A stretch of 8,761 nucleotides of DNA from a virus. Its lineage: Duplodnaviria; Heunggongvirae; Uroviricota; Caudoviricetes. The stretch lies in the IMG/VR virus record IMGVR_UViG_2645727563_000007. One strand, given 5' to 3'. The stretch's first letter is position 1. Every line of letters begins with the position of its first letter. Below the pieces are notes generated by a model that worked only from the letters and a program-made list of their open reading frames with translations, was not told the origin of the DNA and did no database searches. Positions 3,927 through 8,761 of this stretch are shown in pieces. Both the position numbers and the translations under genes were made by a program.

Positions 3927-6059
3927 ATGAGCAAATTCACAGTTGATAGTTTTATCGTTGAGCTAGGCTTCAGCGAGAACGTTATTAAGGGCTTGCAAAG
4001 AGTTGAAAAGGCAGCTTTGCAGTCAGCACAAAGAATTGAAAAGAACCTAAATAAAGGTTTCAGGATTAATACAAAGCAGCTTGATAGTAATTTAACGGCT
4101 TCTTTAAAGTCAATGGAAGGGAAGATTAATAAGACCTTTGACCGTCTGGAAGCTAGAGCACGAAGCACAAAAGTTTTCCAGTTTACCACCAGATTTAATG
4201 ACACTGTTAATCCTCCAAAACAACCGAGACAGCCACGAATTAGCGGCAACAGAGCAATCACAGCAGCTTATTCAGCTAATATGACCAAGCTGAAAGGTCT
4301 TAACCCAATTGTCGAGAAATACATCAAATCTCAGTTTTACGGGCTATCTGCTAAAGCTGGGTCAATGGATAATTCAAAATTCAATGAGAAGTTGGCTCAA
4401 TTAAATGCTTCGGTCAGAGAAGCAATTGCTAAAGCCAGAGGCCATACATCCACCAGCATTAACGGTGACAGAGCAGCTAGCAGTCTTGATAATCTGTCTT
4501 TAGCGGCGGTTAAAACAGCAGGTGCATTTATCAGCTTTCAGGCTGTACTATCCGCTTATCAGCGAGTAATGGAAGTTGGCCTTCAACGTGCATCATCGGA
4601 AAGAAGTATTGATTTCGTATTCGGTGACCAAAGTACACAGGTCAAAAAGTTCATTCAAGATTTAACTCAGATTACTGGGATGGACACAACCGAAACACAA
4701 GCACAGTTTGCTTCATTTGGTGCATCTGCAAAGAACACGATGGGTCTTGAAGGGTCAGAAGAGTTATTTAAAAACCTTACAGGTTATGCTCGTTTAATGG
4801 GTCGTTCAGATGAGCAGATTCAAAGAGCATTAACCGCAGTGTCGCAGATGGCTTCTAAGGGTCAGGTGATGTCTGAGGAGCTGAAGGGGCAACTATCTGA
4901 AGCTTTACCGGGTGCTACTCAGGCATTTGCAAAGGCTTTAGGTCTGACTGAAAAACAGCTTTTCGATAAGATGAAAAATGGTGATGTTAAAGCCTCTGAT
5001 GCACTCCCTAAATTTGCTAAAGAACTTGGTTCACAGATTAATTCAAGAGGTGGCTGGAAAGCTATTCAGGACTCTACGCAGACAATGCTAGGGAACTTGA
5101 AGAATACTTGGAACAACTCACTAACGGATATTTTCAAAGGTTCTGAAGATGGTTTGCAGGACTTCACAAGAAGCTTGACCAATCTTTTAAACGCTCTTGG
5201 TGGAACTGGTAAAACATTAGGTGAAAGTTTTGGTAGCTTGATGACTGATATGTCACATGGTGTCGATTCATTGACTGATATTTCTTACAAGGTGAGAGCT
5301 TTCTTTGATGAGGTGACATTAGCTTACCGTTCACTAAATGACACTCAGAAAAAAATTGTTGACGGTTTATCTGATGGGTTAATTGATGGTTTGAAGATGC
5401 TTGCTGTAGCTGTTACTGCTCAAAAGGCTGCAAATGTAGCTGGAGGCTTGTTAAACCTTGCAAATGCTGTTACTTCATTCGGTGATGCTGTTAATAAAGC
5501 TAAAGCTGGCAAGGCTGGTTCTTCAGGTGGTGCGCTAAGTAAAGTCGGTAGAGTTGTCCTTTATGCTGAGTTGGTGAACTTTGCTCTTGATAATTTAAAC
5601 CCTGAAGCTGCTAAGAATCCGAACTTACATCAATCAGGTATTGGCACAGAAACAAACTTCAACCCTGAATACAAAGGCGATTCATCTAAACCAAACCAAA
5701 TTAATGAGGGATGGGCTAAGATTGGTAGTTCTATCGCTGACTGGTTTAATGGTGCAGCTAATAAAATTGCTAACTTCCAAGAGCCAATGAGTAACCTTGT
5801 TAATAACACACAATCAACTCCACCAGCTATCACAGGTGACATGGTTAATAGCAATGCTCAACTTGCAATGACTATTAGTGAACTATCACGCAAGGTAGAC
5901 GCTTTAACAGTAGAAGCTAAGAAGCCCTTGTCAGTTAATATCACTGGTGAAGCAACTGTTAGACCGGATGAACCAGCTTTCTTTAATTTCAGTCAATCGG
6001 CTAATGACCAGTTCACGCAGGATATGCTCTTAAGTTCAAGCTATCCAGAGGAAGAATGA
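3927..6059 (+). CDS. phage tail tape-measure-domain protein, 710 aa
   Basis: SD AAGAGGTG (3911-3918). Central segment ...QMASKGQVMSEELKGQLSEALPGATQAFAKALGLTEKQLFDKMKNGDVKASDALPKFAKELG... matches the conserved tape-measure motif. Predicted helical N-terminal part and Gly/Ala/Ser/Asn-rich C-terminal part are typical of these proteins. Confidence 0.8.
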   Translation: MSKFTVDSFIVELGFSENVIKGLQRVEKAALQSAQRIEKNLNKGFRINTKQLDSNLTASLKSMEGKINKTFDRLEARARSTKVFQFTTRFNDTVNPPKQPRQPRISGNRAITAAYSANMTKLKGLNPIVEKYIKSQFYGLSAKAGSMDNSKFNEKLAQLNASVREAIAKARGHTSTSINGDRAASSLDNLSLAAVKTAGAFISFQAVLSAYQRVMEVGLQRASSERSIDFVFGDQSTQVKKFIQDLTQITGMDTTETQAQFASFGASAKNTMGLEGSEELFKNLTGYARLMGRSDEQIQRALTAVSQMASKGQVMSEELKGQLSEALPGATQAFAKALGLTEKQLFDKMKNGDVKASDALPKFAKELGSQINSRGGWKAIQDSTQTMLGNLKNTWNNSLTDIFKGSEDGLQDFTRSLTNLLNALGGTGKTLGESFGSLMTDMSHGVDSLTDISYKVRAFFDEVTLAYRSLNDTQKKIVDGLSDGLIDGLKMLAVAVTAQKAANVAGGLLNLANAVTSFGDAVNKAKAGKAGSSGGALSKVGRVVLYAELVNFALDNLNPEAAKNPNLHQSGIGTETNFNPEYKGDSSKPNQINEGWAKIGSSIADWFNGAANKIANFQEPMSNLVNNTQSTPPAITGDMVNSNAQLAMTISELSRKVDALTVEAKKPLSVNITGEATVRPDEPAFFNFSQSANDQFTQDMLLSSSYPEEE

Positions 6060-6158: not shown

Positions 6159-6208
6159 ATTTCAAAGGCTTGGTTAAAAATGATTAAAATACACTAAGCC
6201 TTTGAAAT
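6159..6208. repeat. perfect 13-bp inverted repeat ATTTCAAAGGCTT / AAGCCTTTGAAAT (extendable to 16 bp), ending 2 nt before the next gene's SD
   Basis: Arms at 6159-6171 and 6196-6208 are exact reverse complements; three further pairs (one G.U) extend the helix; SD AAGGAG at 6211-6216. Confidence 0.55.
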
Positions 6209-6222
6209 CAAAGGAGAATTTA

Positions 6223-6996
6223 ATGATTTACTCTAATCAGATTCGTTACAGTGGCAAAGATGGCATCTATTTCCACTTAAGAGATAATGTAGATGCCTTC
6301 TTAACCTTATCAGCAACTGAAAATATGGAATTTGACAGCCCTATGCAGGTAACTACACAGAACATGCAATCAGGGCAAACCGTTACAGATAATGTGCAAA
6401 GAGCACCCAGAACAATCACTATTAGTGGTGTCGTTGTAGTTGGCTATGAAGGAAGCTTATTATTAACTCGTCAGGGTCAATTAGTAGAAAACTTCATTGA
6501 CACTCTCGAAAGCTGGCGTGACCAGAAGCAAATTATTTCGGTTATCTGTAAGGACGGAATTAAAATTGATGATTCCATTATTACGAGTTTTAAAGCCTCT
6601 AAAGATGTTGGAATTTCAAATGGTCTAAGAATCCAGCTAACTTTTCAGGAAATTAACTTCAAAGCCATTGTAGGGCAAACTGATGTTTCAGCAGCTACTG
6701 GCAAAACTGCTACCACGAATGACGGTGGTGCTACCAGTAAGAAGAATGCGGGTAACGTGACTACTGAACGCAATAACGCACCTATGCTGATGTGTCAGGA
6801 ACTGTACAGTTACTCAGCATCTGAGCTATCTGATGAAGCGCTAAGGGTCCGTAGCAATTGCTCTAAAAATGTCACGGTGAAAGATGGTGTAAGCACCTTC
6901 ACAGCCTCAGCTAATGAGCAGGCTTCAAAAGTGCTTAAGTCGGGTAATGCTTTACGGAAGTTTTCTGTGAATCCGAATAAGAAGGGCACTTATTGA
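6223..6996 (+). CDS. hypothetical protein, 257 aa; by position possibly a distal tail (Dit-like) protein
   Basis: Start set at ATG 6223 with SD AAGGAG (6211-6216) rather than the track's TTG 6202. Immediately follows the tape-measure gene, the usual position of Dit in siphovirus tail modules; sequence looks beta-rich. Function is inferred from position only. Confidence 0.55.
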
Positions 6997-7000
6997 GACA

Positions 7001-7023
7001 TAAAAAGGGGCTTCATAGCCCCT
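7001..7023 (-). terminator. intrinsic terminator for the recombinase gene (stem AGGGGCT / AGCCCCT, 4-nt loop, U5 on the - strand)
   Basis: On the - strand the RNA reads AGGGGCUAUGAAGCCCCUUUUUAUG immediately after the recombinase stop codon (plus 7029-7031). On the + strand the U-tract is poor, so it is mainly unidirectional. Confidence 0.6.
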
Positions 7024-7028
7024 GAAAA

Positions 7029-8549
7029 TTACAGTTGATAAGCGTCAATATCCAGTAGCTCTTTATCAGCAATTTCAAAGATTGGTGACCCATCATTTAG
7101 CGGTAACGGGTTTGTAGGTATGGTGATTTCAGTGTCGTTCTGTAGCGTTACAGTTACCGAATCCTTACCCAATGTAAGCCCTTTTAGATGCTTGGACAAA
7201 ATCAACTGACACTCGACACGACCCACTTTAGTTGTCAGGTCAATATCTTTAAGCTGGGGTAGTTCCTTATCAGTGAGTGAAGCCTTACGCCTCATGTTAT
7301 CAATCGTGGTCTGTAGCTCTGTGCGCTTCTGGTTCAGTTCCTTAAGCTGAATTTTTAGTTCATCAATATCATCCATCTCAAGAAGTAGGGCGGTAGCTTT
7401 CTTGATTCTGGTTGTGACAATTTCAACCTCATGCTGTAGAGATGCAATCTCCCCCTCTGCTTCTCCATCATTCCCCACGTCAATCATTCCTAGAAAATTT
7501 TCAAGCATCCACTTATCAAACGGTTTACGCTTCAACGGAGGAACATCACAGCGACCATCAAGATGGTTATTGCACCGATAAACGCCCTGATACTTATTCT
7601 TAGTCCCTGTAGGGTGAACACTAGCCCCGCACTGACACCTAAACAGACCTTTGAAGATGTTAATCGTTAATGGATTATCACTTGCAGGTGTACGGCCTAT
7701 ACGGTTCTTACCAAGAATCTCTTGAGCTTTATTGAACGTTGAAGCATCTATAGCGGCTTCGTAGTAGTTCGGTATAGCGGGGCGGTCATTACGTTGTGAT
7801 GCTGGTAACGTGCCTATCGTTGTCTCTGACCTTAAGATGGTGCGTACAGAGTGAACACTAAACCCGTTAGCATCTTTACGGCGACTAAACGACTTTATAC
7901 CGTTGCTTTGAAGGTGACGGGCGATGTTATGCAGACTTTCACCACTTAGCAGCAGCTTGAAAATCAGTCTTACAGTCTCAGCGTGTTCATTGCACTTGAA
8001 AGTATCGGGGTCAATCCATCCGGGAACATTTCTTGTAAGACGCTGTTCACCAGCAAGGGCAAGCTTTGCACGTTGTTCCCATTTCTGACTAACACGGAAA
8101 GACTTCTGTTTACTCTCCTGATGCGCTATGTAGCTTTTAACCCGCTGAATGATTGAGATTCCTAAATCATCGGATAGAGCATCCCTTGTGTAGATTAGCC
8201 CATCCTGTAGAGTGTGAATCTCGATACCATGAGCAATAATGCGATTCATCAAGGCTTCTGTTTCAAGATGTTCAAGGCGGCCTATGCGGTCGATAGCTTC
8301 GACTAACAGAACTGTACCTTCTGAAAACTCCCCACTTTCAATACGGGAAAGCATATCCCCAAATTGCCCTGACAAGTGCTTACCTTTGTAACCGGATAGA
8401 CCCTCATCATTGAAAGATGCTACTACTTGAGCATCGCTATTCTTCTTCAACCATTGTTTGAACAGGTCGTTTTGTCGTCTGGTTGAATCTGCACCTTCAG
8501 CGCCTTGTATGGCTGAACTGTACCGAAGGTATGTAATTACGTGTCTCAT
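7029..8549 (-). CDS. large serine recombinase (serine integrase), 506 aa
   Basis: N-terminal resolvase-type catalytic domain (YLRYSSAIQ with the catalytic Ser; DEGLSGYKG; LLVEAIDRIGR), followed by a recombinase domain, a Cys-rich zinc-ribbon (FRCQCGASVHPTG...YRCNNHLDGRCD) and a C-terminal coiled-coil. SD GGGAG (revcomp of 8559-8563) 9 nt upstream of ATG. Confidence 0.9.
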   Translation of the reverse strand: MRHVITYLRYSSAIQGAEGADSTRRQNDLFKQWLKKNSDAQVVASFNDEGLSGYKGKHLSGQFGDMLSRIESGEFSEGTVLLVEAIDRIGRLEHLETEALMNRIIAHGIEIHTLQDGLIYTRDALSDDLGISIIQRVKSYIAHQESKQKSFRVSQKWEQRAKLALAGEQRLTRNVPGWIDPDTFKCNEHAETVRLIFKLLLSGESLHNIARHLQSNGIKSFSRRKDANGFSVHSVRTILRSETTIGTLPASQRNDRPAIPNYYEAAIDASTFNKAQEILGKNRIGRTPASDNPLTINIFKGLFRCQCGASVHPTGTKNKYQGVYRCNNHLDGRCDVPPLKRKPFDKWMLENFLGMIDVGNDGEAEGEIASLQHEVEIVTTRIKKATALLLEMDDIDELKIQLKELNQKRTELQTTIDNMRRKASLTDKELPQLKDIDLTTKVGRVECQLILSKHLKGLTLGKDSVTVTLQNDTEITIPTNPLPLNDGSPIFEIADKELLDIDAYQL

Positions 8550-8639
8550 GGTGATAAACTCCCATGCAATTGATTCTCATTTAAAGATGAACTTATAAAC
8601 GTTATGGCTAATGCTACAATGCCGAATAGCTACAATACA

Positions 8640-8761
8640 ATGACCCTTGATTTACCTCGCCGCTTCCCCTGGCCGACGTTACTTTCGGTCTGCATTCATG
8701 GTGCTGTTGTGGCGGGTCTGCTCTATACCTCGGTACATCAGGTTATTGAACTACCTGCGCC
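8640..8761 (+). CDS. tonB: TonB (energy transducer), N-terminal 40 codons; partial, continues beyond the window
   Basis: Translation MTLDLPRRFPWPTLLSVCIHGAVVAGLLYTSVHQVIELPA is recognised as the N-terminal signal-anchor region of Escherichia-type TonB; GC content is visibly higher than the upstream intergenic DNA. Confidence 0.9.
   Translation, partial: MTLDLPRRFPWPTLLSVCIHGAVVAGLLYTSVHQVIELPA

Follow-up and report, generated by a model that had tools for sequence, protein, structure and literature searches.

A serine-recombinase island inserted in the first codons of tonB replaces the tonB promoter region with a strongly conserved island end

Introduction

Large serine recombinases integrate mobile elements into protein-coding genes, as is known for phiC31, for Bxb1 in groEL1, for A118 and phi10403S in comK, for SPbeta in spsM and for the PLE of Vibrio cholerae. 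Here we describe an island of this type at the 5' end of tonB. The DNA analysed is IMG/VR virus record IMGVR_UViG_2645727563_000007 (Caudoviricetes), a stretch of 8,761 nucleotides (nt) referred to below as the window. Near its right end a large serine recombinase gene and tonB diverge from a 90-bp spacer, for which a preliminary description had listed a duplicated octamer, a Fur-box-like sequence and possibly overlapping divergent promoters.

The tonB island shares with the elements named above a recombinase with the Resolvase, Recombinase and zinc-ribbon domain set, short attachment (att) sites of imperfect dyad symmetry with few shared bases, an attP directly upstream of the recombinase gene and a target inside a conserved gene. 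Unlike those cases, in which the target is interrupted or truncated, the tonB island rebuilds the reading frame and swaps only the promoter, operator and leader. In this it resembles e14 and phage 21, which integrate in icd, and elements that integrate in tRNA genes, where the element's copy of the displaced gene part keeps the gene intact. However, those elements use tyrosine integrases and replace the 3' end with regulation untouched, whereas the tonB island replaces the 5' end and regulation changes. A further likeness is to the ends of IS10 (pOUT), IS1, IS2 and ISAba1, in that the terminal bases of the island would supply the promoter of the neighbouring gene and would overlap a recombinase-binding end and a divergent promoter. 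Unlike the outward promoters of these insertion sequences (ISs), the one at tonB would be a fixed, co-evolved substitute for an essential regulatory region, the insertion being site-specific and identical from carrier to carrier.

All high-affinity uptake of iron and vitamin B12 is driven by TonB, on which several phages, colicins, microcins and siderophore-conjugated antibiotics also depend for entry. The island separates tonB from its textbook Fur-regulated promoter in about 4% of complete E. coli genomes, and the regulation and level of TonB in these carriers bear on the reading of their iron physiology and virulence, and possibly of their susceptibility to cefiderocol and colicins. The locus also offers a clear case from nature in which a mobile element restores the 5' end of the gene that it enters and exchanges that gene's regulatory region. 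The combination is unusual: the insertion is site-specific and cross-genus, the 5' end is rebuilt, and a well-studied Fur-regulated promoter is removed from a gene for iron uptake and for phage and colicin entry. Literature searches returned no description of a tonB-targeting recombinase island or a yciI–tonB element; their coverage was incomplete, with subscription journals outside it, and prior work is possible.

Insertion of the island in the first codons of tonB

In the empty site of E. coli K-12, yciI is followed by 223 bp of native intergenic DNA and then by tonB. Comparison with K-12 showed that in MDR_56, E24377A and FG92-1 an island of 11–13 kb lies between the native tonB promoter and tonB, and the promoter is displaced 11–14 kb from the gene. 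In the window, the recombinase start codon (CAT on the plus strand) occupies 8547–8549 and the tonB ATG begins at 8640, which delimits the spacer as 8550–8639. All but the last two bases of the spacer are absent from K-12; the same bases are found, identical or nearly so, beside tonB in more than 220 E. coli genomes, in one Citrobacter genome and in many of 47 metagenome loci.

The two junctions define the insertion point. At attL the native promoter region ends in ACTTCAATGACCCTTGA and continues across the junction as ATGAAGTCTATTCGG; at attR, which lies in the window, CCGAATAGCTACAATACAATGACCCTTGA is followed by TTTACC, or in the longer form GCCGAATAGCTACAATACAATGACCCTTGA by TTTACCTCG. Both junctions and the empty site have just one sequence in common, the 13-bp core CAATGACCCTTGA, and the element therefore sits within the first codons of tonB and not upstream of the gene, where the preliminary description had placed it. 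The reading frame is rebuilt, as the island brings a copy of the tonB start codon together with the 8 coding bases that follow it. At the other end, attL retains the native tonB promoter, Fur operator and leader intact, now ahead of a four-codon stub (ATG ACC CTT GAA TGA, encoding MTLE and a stop).

The spacer has no homology to the K-12 region upstream of tonB: right-anchored identity is 31%, and the score of the best local alignment was reached by 128 of 500 shuffles. These values rule out a diverged native tonB promoter, and the comparison with K-12 thus answers the objection, raised in the preliminary description itself, that the spacer might be identical to the native promoter of insertion-free genomes and nothing altered. 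As the spacer is not the native promoter, tonB regulation must be altered. That part of the earlier proposal stands, in that unrelated island DNA has taken the place of the native promoter, whereas its iron-regulatory part meets a Fur match that is only at chance level in this window (see below). The region 8550–8637 is, with high confidence, the attR-side end of a serine-recombinase island inserted in the first codons of tonB. The coordinates of this and other features are collected in Table 1.

Table 1. Features of the island end and its surroundings, in window positions. Promoter scores were obtained with a crude hexamer-frequency matrix for eight spacer variants, two from the main family and six others; labels beginning with L are our own for the loci compared.
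Feature	Position	Strand	Remarks
Right island end (attR side), the entire recombinase–tonB spacer up to the shared core	8550–8637		Island DNA throughout
13-bp core CAATGACCCTTGA	8638–8650		Common to attB, attP, attL and attR; holds the tonB start codon and codons 2–3
tonB, 5' part (MTLDLPRRFPWPTLLSV...)	8640–8761	+	Identical to K-12 tonB; host DNA from 8651 on
Large serine recombinase (integrase), 506 aa	7029–8549	-	Open reading frame (ORF) and Pfam domains
Recombinase Shine-Dalgarno (SD) sequence GGGAG	8559–8563	-	Duplex energy with the 16S rRNA 3' end -6.8 kcal/mol
attP outer inverted-repeat arm (P arm) CCGAATAG	8622–8629		Partner CTATTCGG at the other island end
Extended -10 TGcTACAAT	8612–8620	+	Score 8.9 in the main family and L017; L016 6.8, L018 5.1, L050 8.5
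Alternative extended -10 TGaTAAACT	8552–8560	+	Predicted start near 8567; score 7.2–8.3; overlaps the recombinase start region
GTGATA-18-TATCAT	about 8551–8580	+	Score 8.8; A-variant islands only; found by the standard scan in the E24377A variant
Second GCTACAAT / its TACAAT	8629–8636 / 8631–8636	+	Score 6.1; no TG, poor -35; TACAAT in the main family and L050
Native PtonB, TTGAAT-18-TAAAAT	not in window	+	Score 12.2; island-free genomes and attL; found by the standard scan
Twelve codons in frame with tonB from ATG (MANATMPNSYNT)	8604–8639	+	Possible N-terminal extension
Fur-box-like 19-mer GCAATTGATTCTCATTTAA	8566–8584		11/19 on the plus strand, 12/19 on the minus strand
Conserved palindrome TGATT(A/C)TCA	8571–8579		C variant TGATTCTCA in the window; matches the Fur consensus core; cross-lineage block, kept in all lineages
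Cross-lineage block TATGGCTnATGYTAC	8603–8617		
Cross-lineage block CCGAAYAGCT	8622–8631		attP P arm
Cross-lineage block AATACA	8634–8639		Runs on into the core; attP P arm
TTGTAT-18-TAGCAT	-35 8635–8640, -10 8611–8616	-	Score 7.5 in every lineage
GATAAT within the palindrome	8573–8578	-	Score 5.8–7.6, 4.5 as GAGAAT in the window; A-variant main family, L005, L017, L018, L021, L050
TTGTAG-16-TATAAG	8614–8619 and 8592–8597	-	Score 4.6; not conserved
Tape-measure gene	3927–6059		
Dit-like gene	6202–6996		

At attL (7319–7440 in L001, and likewise around 6103 in L004) the native promoter and Fur region points into the island, and the cargo genes of the main family are all co-oriented with the captured promoter. 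Just inside attL there is a single hairpin (L001, 7425–7439), and it resembles a terminator only on the opposite strand. Island genes might therefore be transcribed from the captured iron-regulated tonB promoter. Such promoter capture is not a design of the whole family, as the cargo of the L005-type island is mostly not co-oriented.

Recombinase, attachment sites and distribution

The recombinase matches PF00239 (Resolvase, 4e-16), PF07508 (Recombinase, 8e-17) and PF13408 (Zn_ribbon_recom, 2e-6), all of which pass the cut-offs, and its translation contains an N-terminal YLRYSSAIQ catalytic-serine region, a Cys-rich segment and a C-terminal coiled-coil-like stretch. A PDB sequence search with the recombinase gave no match. 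When attP is rebuilt from attR and attL, it contains perfect 8-bp inverted repeats 28 bp apart, centred on GA/CC at 8643/8644, and attB shows TCAA-TGACCC-TTGA around the same centre. The P arm is kept as CCGAAYAG in all lineages. The locus thus combines the domain set, hybrid attL and attR sites that share a core with the empty attB, and a dyad-symmetric attP, as is expected of a large-serine-recombinase element. Crossover probably takes place at AC (8643–8644), a dinucleotide deduced only from the dyad symmetry.

A simple mechanism can be proposed on this basis. The recombinase would recognise attP by the arms CCGAATAG and CTATTCGG and would pair it with an attB made up of the last bases of the tonB leader and the first tonB codons. 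Strand exchange at the AC dinucleotide would restore the tonB frame exactly, attP itself carrying CAATGACCCTTGA, and would exchange all DNA upstream of the tonB start codon for the island end. These 90 bp would then hold the ribosome-binding site of the recombinase gene, one or two candidate recombinase promoters, the attP P arm and, by necessity, an element that transcribes tonB.

A possible free form is found in the metagenome contig L065 (CYGL01000620.1, 12,790 bp). Its bases 1–1486 repeat 11256–12742 at 99.4% identity, which gives an 11.26-kb unit with a P–P' junction in the middle of the contig (3860–3925, containing AATACAATGACCCTTGtAATGAAGTCTATTCGG). The unit is without the invertase module found in MDR_56. 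The arrangement is consistent with an excised circle or a concatemer, and could also be an assembly artefact. Pattern searches of viral contigs for attP and attR gave no matches.

The recombinase gene lies beside tonB in 224–229 of 5426 complete E. coli genomes, among them enterotoxigenic E. coli E24377A and enterohaemorrhagic O111:H8 strains; the remaining ~5200 have tonB without the recombinase and an empty site. Close recombinase relatives are recorded from Shigella sonnei and Citrobacter, and related islands are present at tonB in Citrobacter and other enterobacterial hosts. A scan of a genome collection in which each species is represented once returned one locus. Protein and pattern searches extended the family to 57% amino-acid identity, and in every relative looked up (from E. 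coli, Citrobacter and other enterobacterial hosts) the recombinase gene is divergent to tonB across a spacer of ~90 nt. Recombinases of 57–60% identity (L005, L017–L021, L037) go with the same tonB core, similar attP arms and unrelated cargo, in some cases including helix-turn-helix proteins. The same core with unrelated cargo indicates a tonB-targeting integration module common to different islands across host genera, and to judge from these sequences the recombinase family is specialised on the conserved 5' end of tonB.

Constraint on the island end

The spacer is under strong constraint. In a set of 30 distinct main-family sequences, the third codon positions of the recombinase gene had a diversity of 0.21 (85 of 148 sites variable), compared with 0.042 in spacer positions 8550–8599 (6 of 50) and 0.002 in 8600–8639 (1 of 40). 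The last 40 nt of the spacer are thus ~100-fold less variable than the adjacent synonymous sites. Of the four blocks conserved across lineages (Table 1), two belong to the P arm, and TGATT(A/C)TCA and TATGGCTnATGYTAC need a function other than that arm.

The spacer is also retained where the island itself decays. The tonB frame is complete, at 236–245 aa, in all 45 carrier loci that contain the whole gene, and these include islands in which the recombinase or Dit-like gene is broken by IS1203, IS66, ISEc12 or another IS and the spacer is unchanged. An intact tonB and an unchanged spacer in such islands argue for expression of tonB from the island end. The IS insertions (IS1203, IS66, ISEc12 and an IS3-family element) are independent and have repeatedly entered the Dit-like or recombinase gene of different strains (L001 16611–18697, L004 15574–18797, L007 1–1850, L070 2038–6145, L015 1250–1790), with spacer and tonB unchanged in all.

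Candidate promoters for tonB

A terminator-like hairpin is present on the plus strand at 8416–8435 and would halt antisense transcription that arrives from positions before it. A further GC-rich hairpin, GGGGCTTCATAGCCCC, lies at ~7004–7025 between the convergent Dit-like and recombinase genes. One of its flanks is made of A-runs and the other of T-runs; the hairpin is a probable terminator, evidently so on the strand of the recombinase gene. With these two hairpins upstream, tonB needs a promoter between roughly 8436 and 8639. Read-through from plus-strand island genes into tonB is unlikely, as it would have to pass both hairpins and run antisense through the entire recombinase gene. From the above, a promoter inside the island end quite likely keeps tonB expressed.

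The top-scoring plus-strand candidate in the window is TGcTACAAT, which consists of TG, one further base and a TACAAT that matches five of the six positions of TATAAT, and thus has the sequence of an extended -10 element. It is invariant in the main family, and TGnTAC(A/T)AT is kept in L016, L017, L018 and L050. Near-consensus TGnTACAAT usually works without a -35 element. Transcription from TGcTACAAT would start near 8627 and give a leader of ~13 nt without an SD sequence; such a leader is predicted to be unstructured with the start codon unpaired, and no terminator lies between the element and tonB on the plus strand. Folding of possible leaders on both strands yielded no structure better than shuffles, and an Rfam search of the window found no RNA family. 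The remark in the preliminary description that tonB lacks a clear SD holds (duplex energy ~0), and does so equally for native tonB.

The comparison with the native promoter, which we take to be the TTGAAT-18-TAAAAT element with Fur operator described by Postle and co-workers, shows both likeness and difference. Native promoter and island end are AT-rich, both are without an SD, and both have a Fur-like site ~55–75 nt before the ATG, with equal Fur scores. Unlike the island end, to which it has no homology, the native promoter scores far higher and is found by a standard promoter scan.

Several observations weigh against TGcTACAAT as the tonB promoter and against the island-end account more generally. 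A standard -35/-10 scan of 8300–8761 on both strands found no promoter, and the best candidate scores 8.9 on the crude matrix, against 12.2 for native PtonB. The motif TGnTACAAT, described earlier as an extended -10-like sequence, is credible as such but is missing from two related lineages, L021 (TACATC) and L005 (TACCTC), which also need tonB expressed; a promoter shared by all may therefore lie elsewhere. Positions 8600–8639 are, but for the one variable site counted above, wholly invariant in the main family, so that conservation cannot separate a -10 element from attP or a recombinase promoter. Finally, the P' arm of L065 is longer by one T than in any of the ten attL sites collected, and its arms are 29 instead of 28 bp apart. 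Taking these points together, we give TGcTACAAT an even chance of being the promoter that drives tonB in this window. The overall explanation, in which the island end replaces the tonB promoter with TGcTACAAT as the likeliest new one, we consider probable.

The octamer GCTACAAT does occur twice as reported earlier, at 8613–8620 and 8629–8636, 16 bp from start to start; 0.29 copies are expected in the window, and two or more were seen in 10 of 200 shuffles. The second copy can be set aside as a tonB promoter: its start at ~8643 would fall past the ATG, it lies inside the attP P arm, and it is lineage-specific. At its position other lineages have GCTTCAAT, GCTTAAAT or GCTCAAAT (with TTCAAT, TTAAAT or TCAAAT), which makes the duplication a peculiarity of one lineage.

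The conserved palindrome and its relation to Fur

The Fur-box-like sequence was compared with the 19-bp consensus GATAATGATAATCATTATC, made up of three GATAAT-like hexamers. The site named in the preliminary description is present at 8566–8584 with the reported 11/19 match on the plus strand, but the match is no better than chance here: background in E. coli DNA is expected to give 0.19 sites of at least 12/19 and 0.034 sites of at least 13/19 per 90-bp spacer. No site within three mismatches of the consensus was found in the window. On the other hand, the island site appears at least as Fur-like as the native one, since the native tonB Fur region, which is experimentally established, itself scores only 12/19 by the same measure.

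The core of this site is the conserved palindrome, and its two forms differ next to the centre, at position 8576: of 34 distinct main-family sequences, 14 carry C and 20 carry A. A is also found in L005, L017, L018, L021 and L050, and C in the 72%-identity lineage L016. With A, the sequence reads as the palindrome TGATTATCA and matches the Fur consensus at 13/19, and in L005, L017, L018 and L021 the minus-strand core TGATAATCATT agrees with the Fur core at 11 of 11 positions. With C at 8576 the palindrome is lost, and the Fur match and the -10-like hexamers of both strands become weaker. That both alleles are common is odd for a functional site. The Fur-like site is centred at 8575, ~52 nt upstream of the start predicted for TGcTACAAT, and the palindrome would span ~+5 to +13 of a transcript from TGaTAAACT. 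The palindrome could be a Fur site, a recombinase -10 region or both. Binding of Fur to A-variant islands we give a minority chance of roughly a third, and a lower one in this window.

The divergent recombinase promoter

The best minus-strand candidate is TTGTAT-18-TAGCAT. Its TAGCAT falls in the cross-lineage block TATGGCTAATGCTAC, and its TTGTAT -35 region, where AATACAATG is invariant in all lineages, adjoins the crossover core and the tonB start codon; as a candidate recombinase promoter it would explain the conservation of TATGGCTAATGCTAC. The promoter proposed earlier, TTGTAG-16-TATAAG, has the hexamers and the 16-nt spacing given for it, but it is weak and not conserved, its -10 lacks the final T (-7), and better candidates are present. 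We consider it unlikely to be the recombinase promoter. The broader suggestion of overlapping divergent promoters is borne out to the extent that promoter-like elements on opposite strands do overlap.

The candidates on both strands (8611–8620, 8635–8640) also overlap the predicted recombinase-binding arm (~8618–8643). In geometry this resembles the res sites of Tn3 and gamma-delta, where resolvase sites overlap the tnpA and tnpR promoters. By this analogy of geometry, recombinase bound to the attP arm could repress its own gene and tonB. We know of no description of such autoregulation for large serine recombinases.

Alternative explanations of the island end

Four other accounts of the spacer were weighed. 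It could be the native tonB regulatory region after all, or its motifs could be functionless chance matches in AT-rich DNA. Single motifs are indeed weak, the octamer recurring in shuffled sequence and the Fur match lying at background, but the empty site lacks this region, native upstream DNA is unrelated to it, its variability is far below that of neighbouring synonymous sites, and its blocks are conserved across lineages with recombinases only 57% identical in amino-acid sequence to that of the window. The empty-site, diversity and native-alignment comparisons thus refute this account, to which we give almost no credence. A second account accepts the constraint and assigns it differently: there would be no dedicated tonB promoter, the conserved elements would serve the recombinase only, and tonB would be strongly down-regulated or dependent on incidental transcription. 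The spacer has no canonical promoter, all candidates are far below native PtonB, no good plus-strand -10 is common to all lineages, and the conserved blocks can be assigned to attP (8618–8643), to the minus-strand promoter (8611–8616, 8635–8640) and to the palindrome. Decay would, however, be expected of a silent gene, and tonB is intact in all 45 carrier loci with the whole gene, over several host genera and including old IS-riddled islands with a truncated recombinase gene. Carriers also include pathogens that rely on TonB-driven iron uptake, and an element as close to consensus as TGnTACAAT commonly needs no -35, two points of general knowledge. Silencing is thus improbable; if it did occur, an integrated island would possibly make its carriers less sensitive to phages, colicins and microcins that depend on TonB.

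The other two accounts retain expression of tonB and move its start. Transcription could begin further upstream, at TGaTAAACT or at the A-variant GTGATA-18-TATCAT, with TGATTATCA as a Fur operator and iron control kept. TGnTA[A/G/C]ACT is present in all eight spacer variants scored, the standard scan detects GTGATA-18-TATCAT in the E24377A variant, and the palindrome is kept in every lineage, its 13/19 match with a full core in relatives exceeding both background expectation and the native Fur region. The best local alignment of native and island DNA also pairs the two Fur-like sites, with a score that is not significant. Against this, the window's C variant TGATTCTCA breaks the palindrome, lowers the match to 12/19 and destroys TATCAT, and C is carried by a large part of the main family and by L016. 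The conservation of TGaTAAACT could be due solely to its overlap with the start codon, spacer and SD region of the recombinase gene, and the palindrome reads GATAAT on the minus strand, a plausible recombinase -10. We regard an upstream, Fur-controlled start as unlikely, though with an appreciable chance. Alternatively, translation could start at the island ATG at 8604 (or 8619) on a transcript from 8604 or further upstream, which would give TonB a cytoplasmic N-terminal extension of 12 (or 7) residues. The ATG and the open frame are present in all lineages, gene callers begin tonB at the 8604-type ATG in L016, L018, L020 and L021, and the block TATGGCTAATGCTAC is conserved. An extension might be tolerated, as TonB with a whole GFP at its N-terminus has normal activity (PMC5147803). 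However, between-lineage substitutions are about equal at codon positions 1, 2 and 3, the amino-acid changes are non-conservative (N/Y, M/S, Y/F/L/S), the +1 frame is equally open over the same stretch, there is no SD, and if TGcTACAAT is the promoter the transcript begins downstream of 8604. Without a codon-position signal, the 12-codon frame was rejected as a selected coding extension, and translation of tonB from the island ATG is quite improbable.

A promoter within the island end, with TGcTACAAT as its likeliest element, therefore remains our preferred explanation. A far more elaborate version can be imagined, in which the 90-bp end is a co-evolved cassette across Enterobacteriaceae: an island tonB promoter with its own Fur-type operator would overlap the recombinase arm and promoter, TonB level, iron and integration or excision would be coupled, the native promoter at attL would read into the island, and the main-family island might be a satellite of FelixO1-like phages. 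This full combination is speculative and has a small probability in our estimation.

Island cargo and neighbouring elements

The cargo of the main family comprises a DNA invertase, a Dam-type methylase, a replication-initiator-like protein, ORFans, a tape-measure protein and a Dit-like protein. The Dit-like gene has 95–98.6% nucleotide identity over ~500 bp (6250–6756) to the gene that follows the tape-measure gene in ~200 virulent Felixounavirus genomes, and the tape-measure gene is also partly similar to Felixounavirus (compared with L069, phage garuso, 3011–6018). Among the island proteins no capsid or terminase matches were found, while the replication-initiator-like, tape-measure and Dit-like proteins are present. 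With these features the main-family island may be a satellite of FelixO1-like lytic phages, on the pattern of PLE and ICP1; literature on satellites linked to Felixounavirus did not turn up. A defence-system library matched only an orphan methyltransferase in the island.

A 90-aa ORF at 1351–1623 has a weak HNH_3 endonuclease match of 22.7 bits, just under the cut-off of 24.8, and its neighbours are island ORFans without matches in PHROG or the defence library. The L005-type island (L005, 12963–20121) is ~7 kb long and carries different cargo, with a PH-domain protein and a small recombinase. A lambdoid prophage that encodes a tyrosine integrase lies beside ompW, ~3 kb past tonB, in E24377A and TUM9812 (L004 24056–40440; L070 9851–12235). 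With the island at tonB and this prophage at ompW, the yciI–ompW stretch is a double integration hotspot.

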